Of a stretch of 64,000 bases of DNA, positions 11,707 to 60,002 are shown one piece after another; position 1 is the stretch's first letter; every line of letters starts with the position of its first letter. Location of the stretch: assembly GCA_902500205.1 (NCBI GenBank), contig GCA_902500205.1_4868.1; one strand, written 5' to 3'. Source of the DNA: Escherichia coli (GTDB lineage: Bacteria; Pseudomonadota; Gammaproteobacteria; Enterobacterales; Enterobacteriaceae). Both the position numbers and the translations under genes were made by a program. Under the pieces are notes generated by a model, which saw nothing but the letters and a program-made list of their open reading frames with translations, ran no database searches and was not told the DNA's origin.

Positions 11707-11740
11707 TTTTCAGATATATATTACTTAGGTGAGAGTTAAC
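11707..11740 (+). promoter_or_regulatory. conserved intergenic motif, copy A (TTTTCAGATATATATTACTTAGGTGAGAGTTAAC)
   Basis: 32 of 34 nt identical to copy B at 59957; followed by palindrome AGAGTTAAcaaTTAACTCT and then a gene with AAGGAG RBS. Confidence 0.4.
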
Positions 11741-11784
11741 AATTAACTCTTATCTAATCGACCATTATCTTAAGGAGTTTTAAC

Positions 11785-24120: not shown

Positions 24121-25107
24121 ATGGCTTTTACAATTCGTTGGACGAACAATAACCCTGGGGCTTCGACCGTGAAGCTGTACCGCGACACCAAACCTCTGGT
24201 GCGTACGGCATTACCTGAACCTCTGGCAACGTTCACTAACGGGGAAACTGAGTATACTGACCGAACAGCGATACTGGGGACAACGTATTACTACATGACC
24301 ACTGTGACAGTGGGAAGCCGAACACTGTTCAGTCCGCAGAAATCAATTCTGATTCAGAACCGTCGCGGTATCGGCATCGTGACTCCACAGTACGGTGATG
24401 ACCGCTTTGCGTATTACGGGTATGTGGCGTACGGTGAATTGCCTAGCGCGGCTGATTATCCGCCAGGGTTTGTGGCCATTTCTGGATATGACCCAACTGT
24501 TAAGCCGGGCTTGATTAAGTTCCAGCTAGACGGTAAAATTCTGTATCTGTTTAGTGGTCTTCGTGTGAACGGCAACACGCTGTATAGCCGTGATGCGATT
24601 TATAACGCGGGTTTGCTGTACGGTGTGGAGGGACCTGGTCCGGAAGGCGGTCATGGTGATTTACCTGACGTTGACCAGGCTGGGGAGTTTACGTGGTTGG
24701 GTGACCGCTATCGGATGCGCCTGCTGCGCGGGTTAACGCTCGACAGTGAAAGCCCGGTCATGACACTCGACGCACAGTGGAACGGTAAACTCCATGACGC
24801 GTCACCGTATACTGCCGATAGCGAATACAACCGACTCATCTATGGGATAAGTAGCTGGTTCCCAGAAAAGAAAAAAGTGATGTCCCTGATAAAGTGGTCG
24901 AACACCAGCATATTCGGAAGTGGATCGCTGGTGGCAGGCCGTGGGGCGCATTGTCAGGAGTTTGACCCAGACAGTAAGTTGGGGCTGACGCGCGGATGGG
25001 CGGCGGCGGATTCCACTGATACCGTGGATAACCTCCAGCGTATACAACATGTCCCTGCGACCGTGGGCGGTATTTGGATTCCAGTAATCGAGCTTATCGA
25101 GGATTAA
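24121..25107 (+). CDS. cassette copy 2, gene b (328 aa)
   Basis: Paralog of 20667-21665. Confidence 0.65.
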   Translation: MAFTIRWTNNNPGASTVKLYRDTKPLVRTALPEPLATFTNGETEYTDRTAILGTTYYYMTTVTVGSRTLFSPQKSILIQNRRGIGIVTPQYGDDRFAYYGYVAYGELPSAADYPPGFVAISGYDPTVKPGLIKFQLDGKILYLFSGLRVNGNTLYSRDAIYNAGLLYGVEGPGPEGGHGDLPDVDQAGEFTWLGDRYRMRLLRGLTLDSESPVMTLDAQWNGKLHDASPYTADSEYNRLIYGISSWFPEKKKVMSLIKWSNTSIFGSGSLVAGRGAHCQEFDPDSKLGLTRGWAAADSTDTVDNLQRIQHVPATVGGIWIPVIELIED

Positions 25108-25109
25108 TC

Positions 25110-26009
25110 ATGCCTATTACATTAAACTTTGCACAACGGAAGCCACAGGCGCTCGATAACATTGAAATCTATCGCAAGACGCCGGGCAACGCCACCATTG
25201 ATGTTAATGCACCGGGAACGCCTCTGGCAACCCTTCCGGGTGACGCTACATCGTACGAAGACAACGCTGTGGAAAACAACACCACTTACCGTTATTGGAT
25301 AGCTGCGGTTAAAGACGGTGAGCGTGTCTTCAACACCCCTACCGCCCAAGGGTTCTTTTTAGACACCGGGCCTGGCCCCCAGAAACTGTTATACGGCGAC
25401 TGGCACGCCGGATACTTTGGAACAGTAACGCCAGCAGAGTTATTCACTAACGCGGAACTGAACAGCCTCGTGGTGAATATGTTCAGTTCCGCCGTTGGTG
25501 CCTGGCATAAGTTCATTTACAAAAACCGTATTCTGTTTATGTCCGATAACTCGATAATATACGCTAGCCCGCAGTTCATTTATAACCAGGGGCTGATGTA
25601 CGGCCAGGATGGCAACGGATATGTGCCGAGCTGGGCTAGTGCACGTAACCAACGCCGCACGGTGACGAAAAACGGTTACGAATACGTGGTGCGCTTGCCG
25701 TATTTGTTCGACTACAAATACTGGACGTCTTTCGTTGGAAGCGGTAACACCGAGTTGTATCTCGACGGTGAGTGGTTTAACACCTTCGCGCGCCTGTACA
25801 ACTACAGTGGGCAGTTTCCGCGCTTTGACGACATTCCGGTCGGTCCAATCGATTCGGTTACTGCCCAACAATCTGCATTCTTTGCGGCTATGAATAACTT
25901 GTCCGCTCAGTGGTACAACCGTCCACCCTACCCAGAGTCGCCGTCATGGGGTAACTACGGTACCGATACAATACGCTCTATTGCGGTACTTGAACTCGTT
26001 CTGCCTTAA
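25110..26009 (+). CDS. cassette copy 2, gene c (299 aa)
   Basis: ATG 25110 (MPITLNF..) chosen over the upstream in-frame start; paralog of 21675-22598. Confidence 0.6.
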   Translation: MPITLNFAQRKPQALDNIEIYRKTPGNATIDVNAPGTPLATLPGDATSYEDNAVENNTTYRYWIAAVKDGERVFNTPTAQGFFLDTGPGPQKLLYGDWHAGYFGTVTPAELFTNAELNSLVVNMFSSAVGAWHKFIYKNRILFMSDNSIIYASPQFIYNQGLMYGQDGNGYVPSWASARNQRRTVTKNGYEYVVRLPYLFDYKYWTSFVGSGNTELYLDGEWFNTFARLYNYSGQFPRFDDIPVGPIDSVTAQQSAFFAAMNNLSAQWYNRPPYPESPSWGNYGTDTIRSIAVLELVLP

Positions 26010-26029
26010 CAGGAGACTTCATGGGATTG

Positions 26030-26065
26030 TATAGCGCACTTTACCATAACAGCTAAAAATAGGCC
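26030..26065 (+). pseudogene. 11-codon remnant resembling a collapsed family-A gene (MGLYSALYHNS)
   Basis: AGGAG RBS plus ATGGGATTGTAT.. similar to the start of gene 22612 (ATGGGGTTGTATAC..); ending ..LYHNS resembles family C-termini (..YHYNS, ..LHYNN). Confidence 0.3.
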
Positions 26066-26088
26066 CTTCGGGGCCTATTTTCTTTTTT
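26056..26088 (+). terminator. intrinsic terminator (UUCG tetraloop)
   Basis: AATAGGCCC-TTCG-GGGCCTATT followed by TTCTTTTTT. Confidence 0.75.
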
Positions 26089-26099
26089 AGGACGTTGCA

Positions 26100-27419
26100 A
26101 TGATCAACTATAACAAACCTGTCATGCAACTGGTTTGGGATCAGATTAATCGTGATAACCCGCAGCTCAAGAAACCGCTCAACGCAACCAACGTGGCGTT
26201 ATTACAAGGTCCTTTAACCAATGCCTTGCGCGATGGTCGCAACAGCCGTATCGTGGTAAACGGATTACAGGGTGGTGGTTACAGCGGTAAGATGGACATC
26301 TACTACGACCGCTTAAACCTTTCGCAGTATTTTAAAGGCGTCAGCGTACCGGTTAAAGTACCTTATCGGGCGACGGTCTACCGCGACATCATCGATCGGA
26401 TTTCCGCAGCTTGTGGGTTGGTGCTTACTGCTGACGATTTAACGTATCCTGACAGCCAGTTTGCAATGATCACTGTGGCAACGGGCGATCGGACGGTGGC
26501 GATTAAATCGGATAACCCCGCATTCACGGGTTATATTCCTATTAGCTTTATTCGTGAAGAGCCCAGCTTTGCCGACTTGTACCACACCACCGAAACCGGA
26601 GCTTGGGAACCCATGGATGTTTACAGCACGGTCTATCGACTCGACTGGAGCATGTACACTCAACAGATAATCAATATCCCAATGGGTACCCCGCTGCGAC
26701 TAAACAGTAACTCGTACATGACCCAGTTCATCGCGGCGCTGTCGGCATGGTCGGGCATCCCGTTCACTATCGGTAATGCTGCTACTGATAACCCGTATGA
26801 CCTCTATGGGTATGTCGCTACACGCAATAACAACCCAGGCTTAGACCCTGATATGCGTGGGGAGTACAAATACTGCGTGAAGTTGACGCCACCTGAGGAT
26901 ATGGGTAATCTCCGCCGTCCGTTCTTCTTGCACTTTGGTCCGAAAAATAACGTGGCCTATTTGGCGCAGGAAGAGGACGTCGAGCGTTATGCGCGTTACA
27001 TGAGTTTCCGGGAAACCAGCCCAAATTCGATGAGCGTCACGTTGTATCAAAACGAGTACGTGTTGACTCGGGCAGAATCGCCTGAAACAGCGGATGATTT
27101 AACGGGTTCCCCGTATGGCACTCGATACTGTACCGGGAGTATTCGACGGCTGATGCAACACGCGTTTCCGACCGAAGAGATGTTCCAAGAAAGTATTGCT
27201 AACCGACGTCGGGTACTGTACCACACTGCTTACACCACCACGACATCAGCTATTACTTACCAGGGATTATACCGTAACGGATACCAATCCAAACAAATGA
27301 CGAGCCTCTACTCGAATTACTGTAACTATTTCATCTATTACGACCCAAGCAAAGGCGGCTATATGGTCTACAGTCCATATAGCAAAACCGCCCCGGTCCC
27401 TTGGTATCCACCGCTATAG
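26100..27419 (+). CDS. family-A N-terminal domain protein, 439 aa, C-terminal SKTAPVPW motif
   Basis: N-terminus MINYNKPVMQLVWDQINRDNPQL...DGRNSRIVV...IYYDRLNLSQYF; C-terminus YSPYSKTAPVPWYPPL related to next gene. Confidence 0.65.
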   Translation: MINYNKPVMQLVWDQINRDNPQLKKPLNATNVALLQGPLTNALRDGRNSRIVVNGLQGGGYSGKMDIYYDRLNLSQYFKGVSVPVKVPYRATVYRDIIDRISAACGLVLTADDLTYPDSQFAMITVATGDRTVAIKSDNPAFTGYIPISFIREEPSFADLYHTTETGAWEPMDVYSTVYRLDWSMYTQQIINIPMGTPLRLNSNSYMTQFIAALSAWSGIPFTIGNAATDNPYDLYGYVATRNNNPGLDPDMRGEYKYCVKLTPPEDMGNLRRPFFLHFGPKNNVAYLAQEEDVERYARYMSFRETSPNSMSVTLYQNEYVLTRAESPETADDLTGSPYGTRYCTGSIRRLMQHAFPTEEMFQESIANRRRVLYHTAYTTTTSAITYQGLYRNGYQSKQMTSLYSNYCNYFIYYDPSKGGYMVYSPYSKTAPVPWYPPL

Positions 27420-33793: not shown

Positions 33794-34335
33794 TCGTCCT
33801 CCTCAATCAGGCCAAGTTCTAACAACAAACCGAAGTCCAGCATCTGGAAGTCCTGATCGAGGTTACCGGCCCACAACAGAGAAATGTTGTGTTGCTCTTC
33901 TTCTTCCAACTGCGGGAGCAGGTGTTCTTCGAAGATTTGACGTTCTGTGTAATAAGCGTCAACCGGGTTATTGGAGCGTAAGTTACGAATACGCATCCGC
34001 GGGAATGACAAGCCCAATGCCACTAAACTTTCAGGACTGGCTTCATCAATAGAGTGACGTAGCAGTTCGATTTTGTGGCGTGGGTATGCAAGCAGTCGCT
34101 TCTCAAAGCCAGGGTTGCGCTTTTCGATTTCCGCGACAGACTCGTGTCCTTTCTCAACGCAGTAGACCGGGATCATCACATTCAGCCCGTATTTAATCAA
34201 CAGGCTTTGGATTTCATCAGTGAAGTCTTCCCCTGCCACAATTGCGTGCACATTGTACAGCTTGCTTTTGCGCAGGAAGCGATCGACCAAGTGCAGTTTA
34301 CGCTTCGTAAAATTGTGAATCAGTATTGACTTCAT
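33769..34335 (-). CDS. hypothetical protein (188 aa) in rSAM cluster
   Basis: Start set at internal ATG (MKSILIHNF..) to limit overlap with upstream rSAM gene; acidic C-terminus. Confidence 0.45.
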   Translation of the reverse strand: MKSILIHNFTKRKLHLVDRFLRKSKLYNVHAIVAGEDFTDEIQSLLIKYGLNVMIPVYCVEKGHESVAEIEKRNPGFEKRLLAYPRHKIELLRHSIDEASPESLVALGLSFPRMRIRNLRSNNPVDAYYTERQIFEEHLLPQLEEEEQHNISLLWAGNLDQDFQMLDFGLLLELGLIEEDECLLLTKA

Positions 34336-35626
34336 TCTGGGCTCCGTTTTGTAATTTTTCTGCTTCAGCACGTTGGCGTACACAACGTGAACAATAGCAC
34401 ATGGATTTATCATGCAAATCTGATGCGCGGGTCGTACCAGTTTTCTGATACCAATATTCCGCCGCCATCAGCTTCGCAGTAGTCCAACCACACTGACGAC
34501 GTTCGGCGTGATACGCTTTACGGTCTTCCAGTGTACCTTCACCGTTTTCGTACGATGCTGCTGCGCAGCTACCGCAACTGTGTTTCATCGGACACCCTAA
34601 ACAGGTTTCTGGGTAGTTGGTGTACTGCGTTTGAATCTCTTCTAACAGCTTACCACCGTCCAGGCTCACAAACTCACGACCGACCAGTTCTGCTACAGCA
34701 GAACGGGAAGTTACCGTGGACATGAAACGGTTACAACCGTAAATCTTGCGATCAAAGCCGAGACAGGTCATGTGCGTCAACGTACCGCAGTACGGTTTCA
34801 GGCGTTCTGGGTCGAGACGAACAGAGTCGTCATGTAAGAGTTTGTCACGCCAATCCGGGTCCCAAGTTGCCATAAAGTTCAGGCCATCCGGGATGATGTG
34901 TGTAATCGTGTTACGCGGGTTGGTGTGCAGACCCTTCTCAATCCAGTAGTCCATCACGTCCATCATCTGGTTCGCGATATCCAACGCCATATGGCGCGGC
35001 AGGATATCTTCGTACGTTACGTTACCAGAGATGGTACCACCGCCGGACATGTCAATTAACGATTTCATGCTGGCGGCATAGTGCGGCAATGTATCGATCG
35101 TAAACGTCGCCTTTACGCCCAGCTCAGCGATGCCAACGCTCTTCAGGTAATTGTAACCGCGTACCGCAGCTTCGTACGACCCTTCACGCGTCGTGGTAAA
35201 GATACGATATTTGTCATGGACTTCAGGTAAACCATCGATGGAGACCCCAATAGACAGTTTGTCTTTCCAGCGCTCGATAATTTCTTTGTTCAGCGGTCGG
35301 TCCAGAAGTGTACCGTTCGTGGAGATACTGAACATATACGGGCGATTGTGTTCTGCGCATAACTTCTCTGCGGTTTCAAAGGCCGCCAAAAGAAGTTTAG
35401 GCTGCATGAACGGCTCACCACCGATGATATCGATGATGACTTCAACGTTCGGGATATCTTTATCGCGCTCGAAACAAGCGTGGATAAAATCAATCACGTC
35501 TGCTACTTTGTTGTTACGCGGATATTTACGCTCGTAGCAGTATTCGCAGTCCAGGTTACATGACAAGTTAGTCACAACCTGATACGTGCGTGGTGTGTAC
35601 TGGATTTGCTGTTCGCTATTACTCAT
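34298..35626 (-). CDS. radical SAM enzyme with SPASM-like C-terminal Cys cluster (putative peptide-modifying maturase)
   Basis: CNLDCEYC (CX3CX2C) near N-terminus, GGEP motif, and C-terminal CLGCPMKHSCGSC (Cx2Cx5Cx2C) plus further Cys, as in SPASM/twitch auxiliary cluster domains. Confidence 0.75.
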   Translation of the reverse strand: MSNSEQQIQYTPRTYQVVTNLSCNLDCEYCYERKYPRNNKVADVIDFIHACFERDKDIPNVEVIIDIIGGEPFMQPKLLLAAFETAEKLCAEHNRPYMFSISTNGTLLDRPLNKEIIERWKDKLSIGVSIDGLPEVHDKYRIFTTTREGSYEAAVRGYNYLKSVGIAELGVKATFTIDTLPHYAASMKSLIDMSGGGTISGNVTYEDILPRHMALDIANQMMDVMDYWIEKGLHTNPRNTITHIIPDGLNFMATWDPDWRDKLLHDDSVRLDPERLKPYCGTLTHMTCLGFDRKIYGCNRFMSTVTSRSAVAELVGREFVSLDGGKLLEEIQTQYTNYPETCLGCPMKHSCGSCAAASYENGEGTLEDRKAYHAERRQCGWTTAKLMAAEYWYQKTGTTRASDLHDKSMCYCSRCVRQRAEAEKLQNGAQNEVNTDSQFYEA

Positions 35627-53013: not shown

Positions 53014-54276
53014 GTGACTACTGCTTATCAAGTGCGGGCCGACAGCGCTTTTGGCTTCTCTCGAGACACCCGAACTTGGGGAACCATCGATGTCACGCAG
53101 CCCTTAAATACCCTTTGTGCTAACTACCACTTTTTCGAAGTAGGACTAGAAGCACTAGGTGCTGAATATACCTTCTATAGCCAGTATCACCTGGCTGATT
53201 TACAAAACCGTACGGACACGTTGCAAGATTGGTTAAACACCAAGTCAGGAATCGCGATTCCAACGCTTGGGAAGGGCCTACCGAAGCTCGAATTCGTTGA
53301 GGCACATTACCAGTCTATTAATGCAGATGTGCCCGTAGAAACGCACCTGTGCCCTCCTGGGTACCATTACACTCAGGACTTCAATCCCGATGATGCACAC
53401 GACGTTGTTGTAGTCTGCGACGATGAGTGGAAAGAGAAATACCGTACTGGGGTGCTGTACAACATCAACGGCCAGTGGGTACCTCACCAATCTGACCCAG
53501 TGGGCGTTCGCTTAACCGGCGCTGGTAATATCGTGCGGCGTGCCAATACACCTGACATCGGCTGTCTGGTGATGGCAAACATCGGTAAAGTAAAGACCTA
53601 CCCCATATCCGGTTTAACGATGAACAAACTCGATACTACGCGAGATTACTATTCTTCGTTAATGTTGACCTTACCCGATTCCATTACAGGGAAAACCGTT
53701 GGGTTCGTCATCGGAGGTATTCTGCATTGGTTGCCGCCGCAGGGCTATTTCAGCGACCGTGCGATTATGCTGAGTCTGCCAAACCTTAGCGTGGCGAAGA
53801 TTGTATTGGAAACCCGTCGCTATTACGATTGGGACGCCATCGGTGTAGGTGATTTAAGTACGCCTACGTCCGTTCAACGTATTCGTAACTCAGAAACGTT
53901 AAAAGCGTTGCTGACGCACGAATCCTCGTTTATCTTTACGATAGACAACCCGTATCTCGAAAAAGAGATTCACGGAATAAGCCACAACGCTATCTGGGGC
54001 CGGTTCTATTTAAAAGACCCAACTGACCCAGATGGGAAGAAAACGCTAGGTCCTATCTTTAACCGTATTGGTAAATGTGTAGGGTACTGGCCGACCTGGG
54101 AAGAAGGGGAGTGGGTCTTTAATACCACATTCTTCGACCGGGAAAACTTTTTGTTGGGGAACGCGCGTTGGTATAACCAGAATTTGGTAAACGACGCGCA
54201 GGCAATCGTCGGGCCTTTCGGGGCTTGGGGTAAGCCATTTGTTGAAATGCATCGCTACAAAGCACGAAAAAAATAA
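53014..54276 (+). CDS. hypothetical protein (420 aa)
   Basis: GTG start after AGAGGAAACAGCCA; divergent from the minus-strand fibre operon. Confidence 0.55.
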   Translation: MTTAYQVRADSAFGFSRDTRTWGTIDVTQPLNTLCANYHFFEVGLEALGAEYTFYSQYHLADLQNRTDTLQDWLNTKSGIAIPTLGKGLPKLEFVEAHYQSINADVPVETHLCPPGYHYTQDFNPDDAHDVVVVCDDEWKEKYRTGVLYNINGQWVPHQSDPVGVRLTGAGNIVRRANTPDIGCLVMANIGKVKTYPISGLTMNKLDTTRDYYSSLMLTLPDSITGKTVGFVIGGILHWLPPQGYFSDRAIMLSLPNLSVAKIVLETRRYYDWDAIGVGDLSTPTSVQRIRNSETLKALLTHESSFIFTIDNPYLEKEIHGISHNAIWGRFYLKDPTDPDGKKTLGPIFNRIGKCVGYWPTWEEGEWVFNTTFFDRENFLLGNARWYNQNLVNDAQAIVGPFGAWGKPFVEMHRYKARKK

Positions 54277-54282
54277 AAGGTA

Positions 54283-54326
54283 AACCCTACTCCCAACGGG
54301 AGTAGGGTACCTATATCTTTTTTTGC
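54283..54326. terminator. bidirectional intrinsic terminator
   Basis: CCCTACTCCC-AAC-GGGAGTAGGG with A-run upstream and T-run (TCTTTTTTTG) downstream. Confidence 0.7.
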
Positions 54327-54337
54327 CTGCAGGCCGA

Positions 54338-54547
54338 TTACGCGTTTACGTAATAGATGGCGTTGCCGAACATTTTGTTGTTGCCGCCACAAGCGGTAAC
54401 TTTAAATGCTACGCCGCCTTCAGCTTCGGCTTTCTTAGCCAGCGCTTCGGTAACTTCGGTAACGGTGCTCAGTCCAGAAACCTGAACGGTGCCTGCTTCT
54501 ACCAGACCAGAAACGTCGCTGCCTGCGGTGATTTCACGAATGCTCAT
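54338..54547 (-). CDS. DUF1471 (YhcN/BhsA family)-like small protein lacking a signal peptide
   Basis: C-terminal SGLSTVTEVTEALAKKAEAEGGVAFKVTACGGNNKMFGNAIYYV matches the DUF1471 domain pattern of enterobacterial stress proteins; RBS GGAGA. Confidence 0.5.
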   Translation of the reverse strand: MSIREITAGSDVSGLVEAGTVQVSGLSTVTEVTEALAKKAEAEGGVAFKVTACGGNNKMFGNAIYYVNA

Positions 54548-54641
54548 TTACTTATCTCCATTAACAAATGATAGCAGAAGAACCCTATGTTCAACTACTT
54601 GTACTTCGAGGCATATTAACTGCCCCGACTCGTAAATTAGT

Positions 54642-54728
54642 TGACAATAAACCGGCTTTTGTGCGAAAAAAGTGGCTAACTGTGCACAAGCGATTCGGGT
54701 TATCGTTACAGTTAGGGGTTTATTGTCA
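54642..54728. repeat. 12-bp perfect inverted repeat pair TGACAATAAACC / GGTTTATTGTCA separated by 63 bp
   Basis: Read directly from sequence at 54642-54653 and 54717-54728, in the leader region upstream of the minus-strand DUF1471-like gene; minus-strand TATAAT-like hexamer overlaps at 54731-54736. Confidence 0.5.
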
Positions 54729-54754
54729 CATTATACCCCACACACGTAAATAAC

Positions 54755-55687
54755 TTAGTGCGGTGTACTGGTGTCGTTGCCCGGACCATGGCCAGTATGT
54801 ACGTGAAGAGTAAAGGTGATGCCGCCGATAACCGATTCGGTAACTGTGAATGTGCCCTTACCTTCACCCTTGCCGTTATAGAGGAAATCTTTACCTACTT
54901 CCAGGTTACCGGTAAATAGATTCGTTGGACAATCGGTCTTCCAGTCTTCAGTCGTCCATGCCATGTTTTTCGACGCTGTAGAGTTGCGAGTTTCGCACTT
55001 CTCGTTAATCGTCTTTGTCTCGAGATTAATAGAACGTTTAGCATAAATGAAAGCGTCCTCTTTATTGATATTAATCTTCGACCGGCAGGCGTTTTCAAAC
55101 CCTAAATCATCCTCTGGAGAGTTGAGGTAGAACTTACGCCCTTCGTCATCCACCAACTGGCAAAACCCGTCACGGGTATTCAGCTGGAGCAGATACGCGT
55201 TTTTCTCACCGTTAGTCATACTGGTACGTAAAGTAACGTGACCATCCATCGGGGAGATATTCAGTACGTAGGCGTTAGAGAGGTCATCGGCCATCTGGTT
55301 TACTGGGTCAGCAGACCAGGCGTATACCCCATCTTCCAGTCGCTTAACGTTACTATTGTTTAAATCTTCCCAGAAGTACATATCGGTTTCACCGATACGC
55401 CAGATTCTTACGTAGTCTTCTTTTTTCACATCCGGAGGGTTAACCCGGTTGCTGTTGGACTTCATCCATTTTGCAGTGATGGCATTACCTTGCTTTACAG
55501 TAAGGTTGTCAGTACCACTTAAACTGTTGTGTTGCTTCTCTACAGGTGTCTCTGTTGCATCGACAGCTGTTGGATTAATAAAGTTAACTTCGATAGGGAT
55601 GACTTTAACTCGAGTGGCACCACGAGGTTTATCTTCCGCGACGATACCTATCGAGAAGATGTGCAACCCTGACTTAGATTTATTCAT
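54755..55687 (-). CDS. hypothetical protein (310 aa)
   Basis: ATG 6 nt after GGAGG on minus strand. Confidence 0.55.
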   Translation of the reverse strand: MNKSKSGLHIFSIGIVAEDKPRGATRVKVIPIEVNFINPTAVDATETPVEKQHNSLSGTDNLTVKQGNAITAKWMKSNSNRVNPPDVKKEDYVRIWRIGETDMYFWEDLNNSNVKRLEDGVYAWSADPVNQMADDLSNAYVLNISPMDGHVTLRTSMTNGEKNAYLLQLNTRDGFCQLVDDEGRKFYLNSPEDDLGFENACRSKININKEDAFIYAKRSINLETKTINEKCETRNSTASKNMAWTTEDWKTDCPTNLFTGNLEVGKDFLYNGKGEGKGTFTVTESVIGGITFTLHVHTGHGPGNDTSTPH

Positions 55688-59956: not shown

Positions 59957-59990
59957 ATCTCAGATATATATTACCTAGGTGAGAGTTAAG
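59957..59990 (+). promoter_or_regulatory. conserved intergenic motif, copy B (ATCTCAGATATATATTACCTAGGTGAGAGTTAAG)
   Basis: Near-identical to copy A; followed by GAGTTAAgagaTTAACTC palindrome and then a terminator-like hairpin. Confidence 0.4.
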
Positions 59991-60002
59991 AGATTAACTC
60001 AA

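Follow-up and report, generated by a model that had tools for sequence, protein, structure and literature searches.

The window analyzed here, a stretch of 64,000 nucleotides (nt) from contig GCA_902500205.1_4868.1, contains on its minus strand, at 54338-54547, a short open reading frame (ORF) which is the ortholog of gp172 of the jumbo phage SPN3US and is called gp172 in the following. It encodes a 7-kDa acidic protein with a single DUF1471 domain of the BhsA/YbiJ/McbA-like type. We conclude that this ORF is a real gene, that its product is a member of Pfam family PF07338 by sequence and fold but not an equivalog of BhsA, McbA or YbiJ, and that the gene is selected for very high translation. 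As far as the compared sequences indicate, a form without export signal has become fixed in SPN3US-like jumbo phages of at least five genera. Concerning its role, we tentatively favor, by analogy, an abundant non-structural protein which is made in the cytoplasm and would reach envelope targets only at lysis.

The reading frame extends from an ATG to a TAA and translates into 69 amino acids (MSIREITAGSDVSGLVEAGTVQVSGLSTVTEVTEALAKKAEAEGGVAFKVTACGGNNKMFGNAIYYVNA). Its nucleotide sequence is identical to that of SPN3US_0172, and so is the protein (AEP84005.1 / YP_009153466.1); the region of the window shows 95.5–98.9% identity to SPN3US-like jumbo phages of Salmonella and Escherichia (genus Seoulvirus). 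Compared with its orthologs, the gp172 frame has a ratio of nonsynonymous to synonymous substitution rates (dN/dS) of 0.12–0.46, which points to purifying selection. An antisense ORF of 82 amino acids with a TTG start (54323-54571, plus strand) covers the whole DUF1471 gene and exceeds it in length; a length-based gene caller would choose it over gp172. At least one related GenBank record (MT799840) is without annotation at the locus. Since the gp172 frame is under purifying selection and gp172 peptides have been seen by mass spectrometry, the antisense ORF is not the gene. A reading of the locus as a recently captured fragment of a host bhsA-like gene (a “moron” or passenger), which lost its signal by accident and is functionless, or even as an ORF that is no gene, could draw on the small size, on the promoter-like and terminator sequences of its own on the flanks, on the longer antisense ORF and on the missing annotation in MT799840. 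However, we consider it extremely improbable, given the dN/dS values and the observed peptides, the Pfam match on the minus-strand frame, the identity of 30% to E. coli BhsA, a codon adaptation far above that of bhsA and maintained in all orthologs, and the occupation of one locus in at least five phage genera (62 records), plus metagenomic jumbo-phage contigs of 107–248 kb.

A first-pass annotation of the window had aligned the C-terminal part of the protein with DUF1471 by eye and had named the lack of a significant profile match as grounds for dropping the call. Such a match exists: PF07338 (YdgH_BhsA-like, DUF1471) recognizes gp172 with 43.5 bits (curated cut-off 27; E 3.3e-11), and residues 16–66 align to profile positions 2–54 of 55, covering 53 of the 55 positions. 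The match sits on the minus-strand frame. PHROGs places the protein in phrog_8068, labelled function unknown. The best NCBIfam matches are McbA (40.9 bits, cut-off 110), BhsA (NF047859; 39.4, cut-off 90) and YbiJ (29.6, cut-off 110), all below their equivalog cut-offs, and identity to E. coli K-12 BhsA is 30%. The name “putative multiple stress resistance protein BhsA”, which the ortholog carries in several Erwinia and Salmonella phage records, is therefore over-specific. An AlphaFold2 model based on nine homologs (predicted local distance difference test score 87.8) has the order beta-alpha-beta-beta and matches solved DUF1471 structures, with a compact alpha+beta fold as in SrfN, YahO and the YdgH domains. 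The family motifs G-V-S-x-S-G, L-x-x-K-A, G-A and G-G-N-N-K-x-x-G-x-A-x-x-Y are kept in the phage copies, which are uniformly acidic, unlike their cellular relatives (isoelectric point 4.6–5.8). The SPN3US-type allele ends in YYV(N/E/A)A, whereas the usual form is IYK/IYR. For YjfN, a C-terminal alanine was reported to activate DegP (PMC12096828); as a conserved signal of this kind it was rejected here, as only SPN3US-type and CR5 alleles end in Ala and the others in Glu or Asp. The same fold also occurs in the cytoplasmic proteins YbjQ/DUF74, selenium-binding protein and dodecin. A cytoplasmic oligomer of one of these types was rejected as well, since neither sequence membership nor homo-oligomers with ligand sites at the interface were found.

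The codon directly 5′ of the gp172 ATG is TAA, therefore no upstream in-frame start can supply a signal peptide. The highest 9-residue hydrophobicity within the first 30 residues is 1.13 and is located inside the domain, compared with values of at least 2.0 at positions 3–13 in the cellular representatives; neither a lipobox nor a twin-arginine motif was found in the gp172 sequence. A hydrophobic N-terminus is likewise absent from all ten phage copies and all seven metagenomic copies tested, and their upstream in-frame stretches are short, with none that could gain a signal peptide from upstream sequence. Hence, the earlier statement that this DUF1471 protein lacks a signal peptide is confirmed, and the upstream start that might have overturned it is excluded. 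Residues 10–66 align to positions 29–85 of the McbA model (of 86) and to BhsA residues 28–84. Residue 1 lies about five residues before the BhsA cleavage site, and the phage protein is thus the counterpart of the mature host protein. The description as a “cytoplasmic version” is appropriate for the site of synthesis, but not necessarily for the site of action, as the protein has once been reported in virions and could reach the envelope at lysis.

A profile of the phage homologs searched against 1.84 billion representative proteins returned 71 matches; a word-index protein search gave only close phage relatives, and the exhaustive profile search was needed for cellular homologs. The best four of the 71 matches are signal-less proteins of 68–78 amino acids, three of which match SPN3US-like jumbo-phage genomes (tblastn or sequence). 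Nearly all remaining matches are cellular, 75–92 amino acids long and equipped with a clear N-terminal hydrophobic segment; the few signal-less cellular exceptions look like truncated or mis-started gene calls. Three long matches (P0016, P0019, P0062) were discarded as repeat-driven false positives (cadherin, FG-GAP, fn3). The nearest cellular representatives are BhsA/YbiJ/McbA-like and 44–57% identical over the domain. Using tblastn, a gp172 homolog was detected in 62 phage records; the carrier genera are Seoulvirus, Machinavirus, Erskinevirus, Wellingtonvirus and Derbicusvirus, and their hosts (Salmonella, Escherichia, Proteus, Erwinia, Cronobacter) all belong to the Enterobacterales. In IMG/VR, the homolog is confined to jumbo contigs (107–248 kb). 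The hint at an enterobacterial host in the first-pass annotation was thus justified, as the window resembles SPN3US-like Salmonella jumbo phages and all carriers of the gene infect Enterobacterales. Several SPFM phage records (LR535901, LR535903-LR535908 and LR535911-LR535913) match the locus only as 14–16 shuffled pieces and encode chimeric 61-amino-acid “proteins” (P0009-P0011) of rearranged gp172 segments; these shuffled records look like assembly artifacts rather than biology. In Erwinia phage Wellington, another DUF1471 gene without signal (gp189; L006:3787-4347) adjoins the first one on its downstream side. The N-terminal domain of gp189 scores above the Pfam cut-off (29.7 vs. 27 bits), and the remaining roughly 120 residues form a charged, low-complexity tail which is probably disordered; the codon adaptation index (CAI) of this second gene is 0.50.

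At the spike locus, no DUF1471 gene was found in the chimallivirus relatives of Aeromonas and Pseudomonas or in the more distant Erwinia phage Joad, although the spike gene is present; in Aeromonas phage PS1 and in Joad, nothing stands at the position downstream of it. Because these distant chimalliviruses keep the spike gene without the DUF1471 gene, the latter is regarded as an insertion specific to the SPN3US-like enterobacterial lineage. A neighbor-joining tree of phage and cellular domains (54 columns, 500 bootstraps) was unresolved, with a support of 0.10 for phage monophyly, and the smallest clade holding all core phage copies also includes four cellular sequences. We nevertheless argue for a single old acquisition, which is suggested by identical synteny and shared N-termini, not by the tree. 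The earlier proposal of a host-derived, repurposed domain remains plausible in this form; a recent capture does not fit the 30% identity to K-12 BhsA, the single locus in at least five genera and a codon adaptation beyond that of bhsA.

The codon usage of the gene is extreme. When the weights are taken from 25 ribosomal protein genes of E. coli K-12, gp172 has a CAI of 0.73 and ranks first among the 65 genes of the window (others 0.40 ± 0.07; z 4.5). This value falls within the range of the ribosomal protein genes themselves (0.59–0.81); E. coli bhsA reaches 0.43. Using Sharp-Li weights, the orthologs in 11 phages range from 0.50 to 0.68, compared with 0.29–0.39 for the flanking genes, and of 5,000 stretches of 69 codons drawn at random from other genes, practically none reach the gp172 value. 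Both sets of weights lead to the same conclusion. Since the next-ranked genes of the window include gp141, gp143 and gp160, which encode some of the most abundant virion proteins, CAI tracks abundance in this phage. The third-highest CAI of the window (0.56) belongs to a radical-SAM-like, non-virion gene at 34298-35626 on the minus strand (SPN3US gp163).

The sequences flanking the gene point, by comparison with phiKZ, to a transcription unit of its own with a middle/late-type promoter, a strong ribosome-binding site and a terminator. A TTTAC(A/G)-N15-TATG motif lies upstream of the DUF1471 gene in nine of 11 related phages, 45–69 nt 5′ of the ATG; its parts in the window are TTTACG (54636-54631), N15 and TATG (54615-54612). 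In phiKZ, the middle-promoter motif is AAanTTACc at about −24, and late promoters carry TATG with the G as +1 (PMC4666361; PMC7598289). The gp172 motif resembles the phiKZ middle motif combined with the late TATG, and by this analogy the transcript is predicted to start at G 54612 with a 65-nt leader. In the window, TTAC-N15-17-TATG occurs 11 times versus 6.9 times in shuffles, with five of the 11 copies in the intergenic fraction of about 6%. Just before the promoter motif, most relatives have a GC hairpin with U-run which closes the upstream unit; the segment of the strong terminator predicted directly after the gene folds with −28.5 kcal/mol (RNAfold). A sigma-70 promoter scan gave nothing upstream of the gene, as is expected because such phages use their own RNA polymerases. 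The leader shows no significant RNA structure (z −1.57), and Rfam has no family match at the DUF1471 locus, including 54640-54753. An AT-rich candidate early-promoter motif (GATATATATTAC) is absent at the DUF1471 gene and occurs at 11713 and 59963. There, the plus strand carries two nearly identical copies of a 35-nt intergenic element (CAGATATATATTACYTAGGTGAGAGTTAA; 11708-11743 and 59958-59994), whose AT-rich core resembles the early promoter type (virion RNA polymerase) of phiKZ-like phages. The sequence GATAACCC was rejected as a regulatory motif: it is enriched (12 copies in the window vs. 1.5 expected), but all other copies lie within predicted genes.

Two alleles of the protein exist. 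Type A proteins (SPN3US, pEa_SNUABM_29, Caitlin) are 72–84% identical among themselves, type B proteins (Asesino, phiEaH2, SPAsTU, Machina, pEa_SNUABM_9) 74–97%, but identity between the types is 41–49%. The flanking genes group differently, namely SPAsTU with SPN3US and pEa29, and Caitlin with pEa9 and Machina, and in sliding windows of nucleotide identity the switch falls at the ORF edges. For these two reasons, we conclude that the coding cassette was exchanged between phage lineages. Cassette exchange is common for genes at the phage-host interface.

In 2017, gp172 was detected in SPN3US virions purified on a single cesium chloride (CsCl) gradient, with four unique peptides, six spectra and 81% coverage (PMC5694885, Supplementary Table 1). 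It was described there as the “smallest SPN3US virion protein”, of low abundance and unknown function, for which “further experiments are required”; it was not among the proteins of 47(am1) particles and not labelled a head protein (PMC5694885). The tables of a 2023 proteome, obtained with a double CsCl gradient, triplicates, and both trypsin and chymotrypsin, list gp168-171 and gp173 as tail proteins and do not list gp172 (PMC10052503 Table S2). Virion membership of gp172 is therefore doubtful, and it is probably not a stable virion part. These data bear on the idea that gp172 is a minor tail protein, loosely held on the central spike or baseplate, which the tail delivers to the outer membrane or periplasm and which needs no signal peptide for this reason. 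The 2017 detection without head label agrees with it, as do the periplasm and outer membrane as the natural site of DUF1471 action and the position of the gene directly 3′ of the spike gene gp173, inside the tail cluster in every related phage; moreover, phage 201phi2-1 has a PAAR spike-tip gene (gp248; L031:3825-4091) at the place which the DUF1471 gene takes in SPN3US-like phages. However, gene order is broadly conserved in these phages, which makes position weak evidence, and the triplicate proteome found all neighboring tail proteins while gp172 was unlisted; the 47(am1) particles lacked it as well. Its ribosomal-protein-level codon adaptation points to very high translation, which fits poorly with only a few copies in each virion. 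Further, a separate promoter motif insulates the gene from the spike gene, as does a terminator ahead of this motif in relatives, and gp173, whose own apex is Mu gp45-like and bears an HxH motif, should be able to do without a tip protein. A PAAR-type spike tip in particular was ruled out by the DUF1471 fold and by the absence of any PAAR family among the gp172 Pfam matches at E up to 10. Overall, a tail-accessory role appears unlikely, and less likely than either action upon lysis or a purely cytoplasmic role.

According to the interpretation favored here, the non-virion RNA polymerase of the phage would transcribe the gene during the middle or late stage of infection. Through very strong translation, gp172 would build up in the cytoplasm, already folded as a “mature” DUF1471 domain, which would retain the envelope-directed binding activity of its cellular relatives. 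It would meet an outer-membrane or periplasmic target only once holin triggering or lysis opens the inner membrane, and it might then act in bulk on the lysing cell, on debris or on neighboring cells. Canonical endolysins and free tailspike or depolymerase proteins behave in this way: they have no signal peptide and act after membrane breach. We prefer this reading because DUF1471 biology is located in the envelope, the family motifs are retained and the predicted expression is both high and of middle/late type. Known DUF1471 biology is entirely envelope-bound (PMC12096828, PMC11705850): BhsA is associated with the outer membrane and YjfN acts on DegP (PMC12096828), while YdgH without its signal fails to complement (PMC11705850). 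The allele exchange, being typical of host-interaction genes, was also counted in its favor. On the other hand, several points weigh against release at lysis. The conserved motifs may serve the structure alone, and the acidity of the protein hardly hints at a direct disruption of membranes. Next to the gp172 gene, no lysis genes were recognized. High codon adaptation is a sign of abundance and says nothing on the site of action, and the class and timing of the promoter are taken by analogy from the distant relative phiKZ. A protein of 7 kDa could, moreover, be absent from the 2023 tables for technical reasons.

Several of the same observations are also consistent with an abundant binder that remains in the cytoplasm and never needs the envelope, e.g., a stoichiometric inhibitor, a “sponge” for small molecules or proteins (for instance against host defense) or an assembly chaperone for tail parts. 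We regard this as possible, if somewhat doubtful, and as nearly as likely as the release of gp172 at lysis. The export signal is absent from all copies, codon adaptation is very high, alleles are swapped as is typical of arms-race genes, the phage copies differ from their cellular relatives in being uniformly acidic, and gp172 is missing from the stringent virion proteome tables. In addition, cytoplasmic proteins of the same fold exist, such as YbjQ/DUF74, selenium-binding protein and dodecin; however, the gp172 sequence is clearly of the BhsA/McbA/YbiJ type of DUF1471 and not YbjQ-like, and the conserved DUF1471 motifs are kept. Counter-defense genes are usually early, whereas the promoter motif of gp172 resembles the phiKZ middle/late type, and DUF1471 domains are not known to have any cytoplasmic partner or ligand.

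Features of the gp172 locus (window coordinates).
Feature	Position	Strand	Basis and remarks
69-amino-acid signal-peptide-less DUF1471 gene (SPN3US gp172 ortholog)	54338..54547, TAA stop included	minus	ORF list, Pfam, PHROG 8068
Shine-Dalgarno GGAGA	54555..54559	minus	7 nt 5′ of ATG; direct sequence inspection
Predicted phage-RNA-polymerase promoter TTTACG-N15-TATG	54612..54636	minus	Motif conservation, phiKZ likeness
Intrinsic terminator, 11-bp stem (7 G-C pairs), then T-rich tail	54274..54308	minus	Terminator scan; faces end of convergent gp171
Conserved intergenic unit, spike gene to DUF1471 promoter	54640..54753	minus	Alignments of 7-11 phages
gp173, central tail spike (cell-puncturing device)	54755..55687	minus	Immediately upstream of DUF1471 gene
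gp171, essential tail-associated protein	53014..54276	plus	Convergent with DUF1471 gene; synteny in all related phages

The order of the locus is the same in all phages examined, i.e., central spike gene, a gap of 207–310 nt, DUF1471 gene, terminator and a convergent gp171-like essential tail gene. The spike protein gp173 matches phiKZ gp164 (PDB 6orj) with an E of 3.3e-27 and the spike apex of Mu gp45 (3vto, 9ki1) with 3e-4 to 1e-3. It belongs to PHROG 3216 (baseplate assembly protein), and its C-terminus contains HVH within LHVHTGHG, an HxH motif. Mass spectrometry assigned it to the tail (PMC10052503 Table S2). The Pseudomonas relatives match only the first 65–80% of gp173 and appear to be without the Mu gp45-like apex. 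gp171 is essential (PMC5105663) and was likewise assigned to the tail (PMC10052503).

Between the spike gene and the gp172 promoter motif, the conserved intergenic unit has a promoter-like TTTACG-N14-TGTG right after the gp173 stop, and then the conserved blocks GACAA, CGCTTG and GCCACTTTTTTCGCACAAAAG. In relatives it ends with a hairpin and U-run supported by compensatory changes; in the window, an inverted repeat, TGACAATAAACC / GGTTTATTGTCA (54728-54717 / 54653-54642), takes the place of this hairpin. Judged by its sequence, this unit looks like a separate small transcription unit and is a candidate small RNA.

Elsewhere in the window, at about 25074-26100, roughly 3.4 kb of tandem paralog-family-B head genes are absent relative to SPN3US. 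In SPN3US, gp148-150 are followed by the similar gp151-153; in the window, a 311-amino-acid gene is directly followed by gp154. This difference indicates copy-number variation via recombination between tandem paralogs.

That gp172 exists and carries this domain is already on public record, as YP_009153466.1 has the RefSeq name “DUF1471 domain-containing protein”. Apparently unreported in the literature searched are the loss of the export signal throughout the clade, the predicted insulated transcription unit, the exceptionally high codon adaptation and the exchange of the cassette. Taken at its boldest, which we rate as rather improbable, the combination would mean that a jumbo-phage lineage domesticated an Enterobacterales-specific envelope-stress domain as a new kind of effector, with its export signal removed, ribosomal-protein-like expression and two exchangeable alleles. 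Such an effector could be a bulk “public-good” protein released at lysis, which binds outer-membrane components and thereby masks receptors on debris or alters the surfaces of neighbors, or it could use the DUF1471 fold as the scaffold of a sponge or inhibitor in the cytoplasm. In either case, its partner would reveal the long-sought molecular ligand of the DUF1471 family. About 5–10 copies of these proteins (BhsA, McbA, YhcN, YahO, SrfN, YdgH and others) are present per enterobacterial genome and are induced by many stresses, but for most of them neither a molecular function nor a confirmed ligand is known. gp172 is a naturally simplified member, namely a bare mature domain with strong predicted expression and ongoing allele exchange, and for these reasons its partner could be identified by pull-down from infected cells and might give the whole family a function. 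It is also a candidate abundant non-structural effector in SPN3US, a genetically tractable, nucleus-forming jumbo phage, and the analysis clarifies the doubtful status of its smallest reported virion protein. If gp172 is instead a soluble protein at contaminant level without phenotype, the finding is an ordinary one.

Among known systems, gp172 is closest to the BhsA(YcfR)/YbiJ/McbA branch of the DUF1471/YhcN family (PF07338), with which it shares the beta-alpha-beta-beta fold and the size of the mature protein. The family is restricted to Enterobacterales (PMC12096828, PMC11705850), and the hosts of all gp172 carriers match this range. In contrast to host DUF1471 proteins, gp172 is without the usual Sec signal peptide, and its gene resides in lytic jumbo phages, always at one place of the tail module. 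The C-terminal domain of RcsF, an outer-membrane stress sensor lipoprotein, is similar in fold only (about 11% identity); gp172 has neither lipobox nor paired cysteines, and its single Cys53 is Ala in relatives. The PAAR spike-tip proteins such as 201phi2-1 gp248 are likewise encoded by a small gene directly 3′ of a phiKZ gp164-type spike gene, but gp172 differs from them in fold, in its own promoter motif and in the terminator found upstream in relatives. With canonical endolysins and free tailspikes, gp172 would share the missing export signal, late accumulation in the cytoplasm and a target in the envelope or outside the cell, an analogy drawn from general phage biology. Unlike endolysins and depolymerases, it has no enzymatic domain and no lysis-cassette context, and envelope binding is in its case only proposed.

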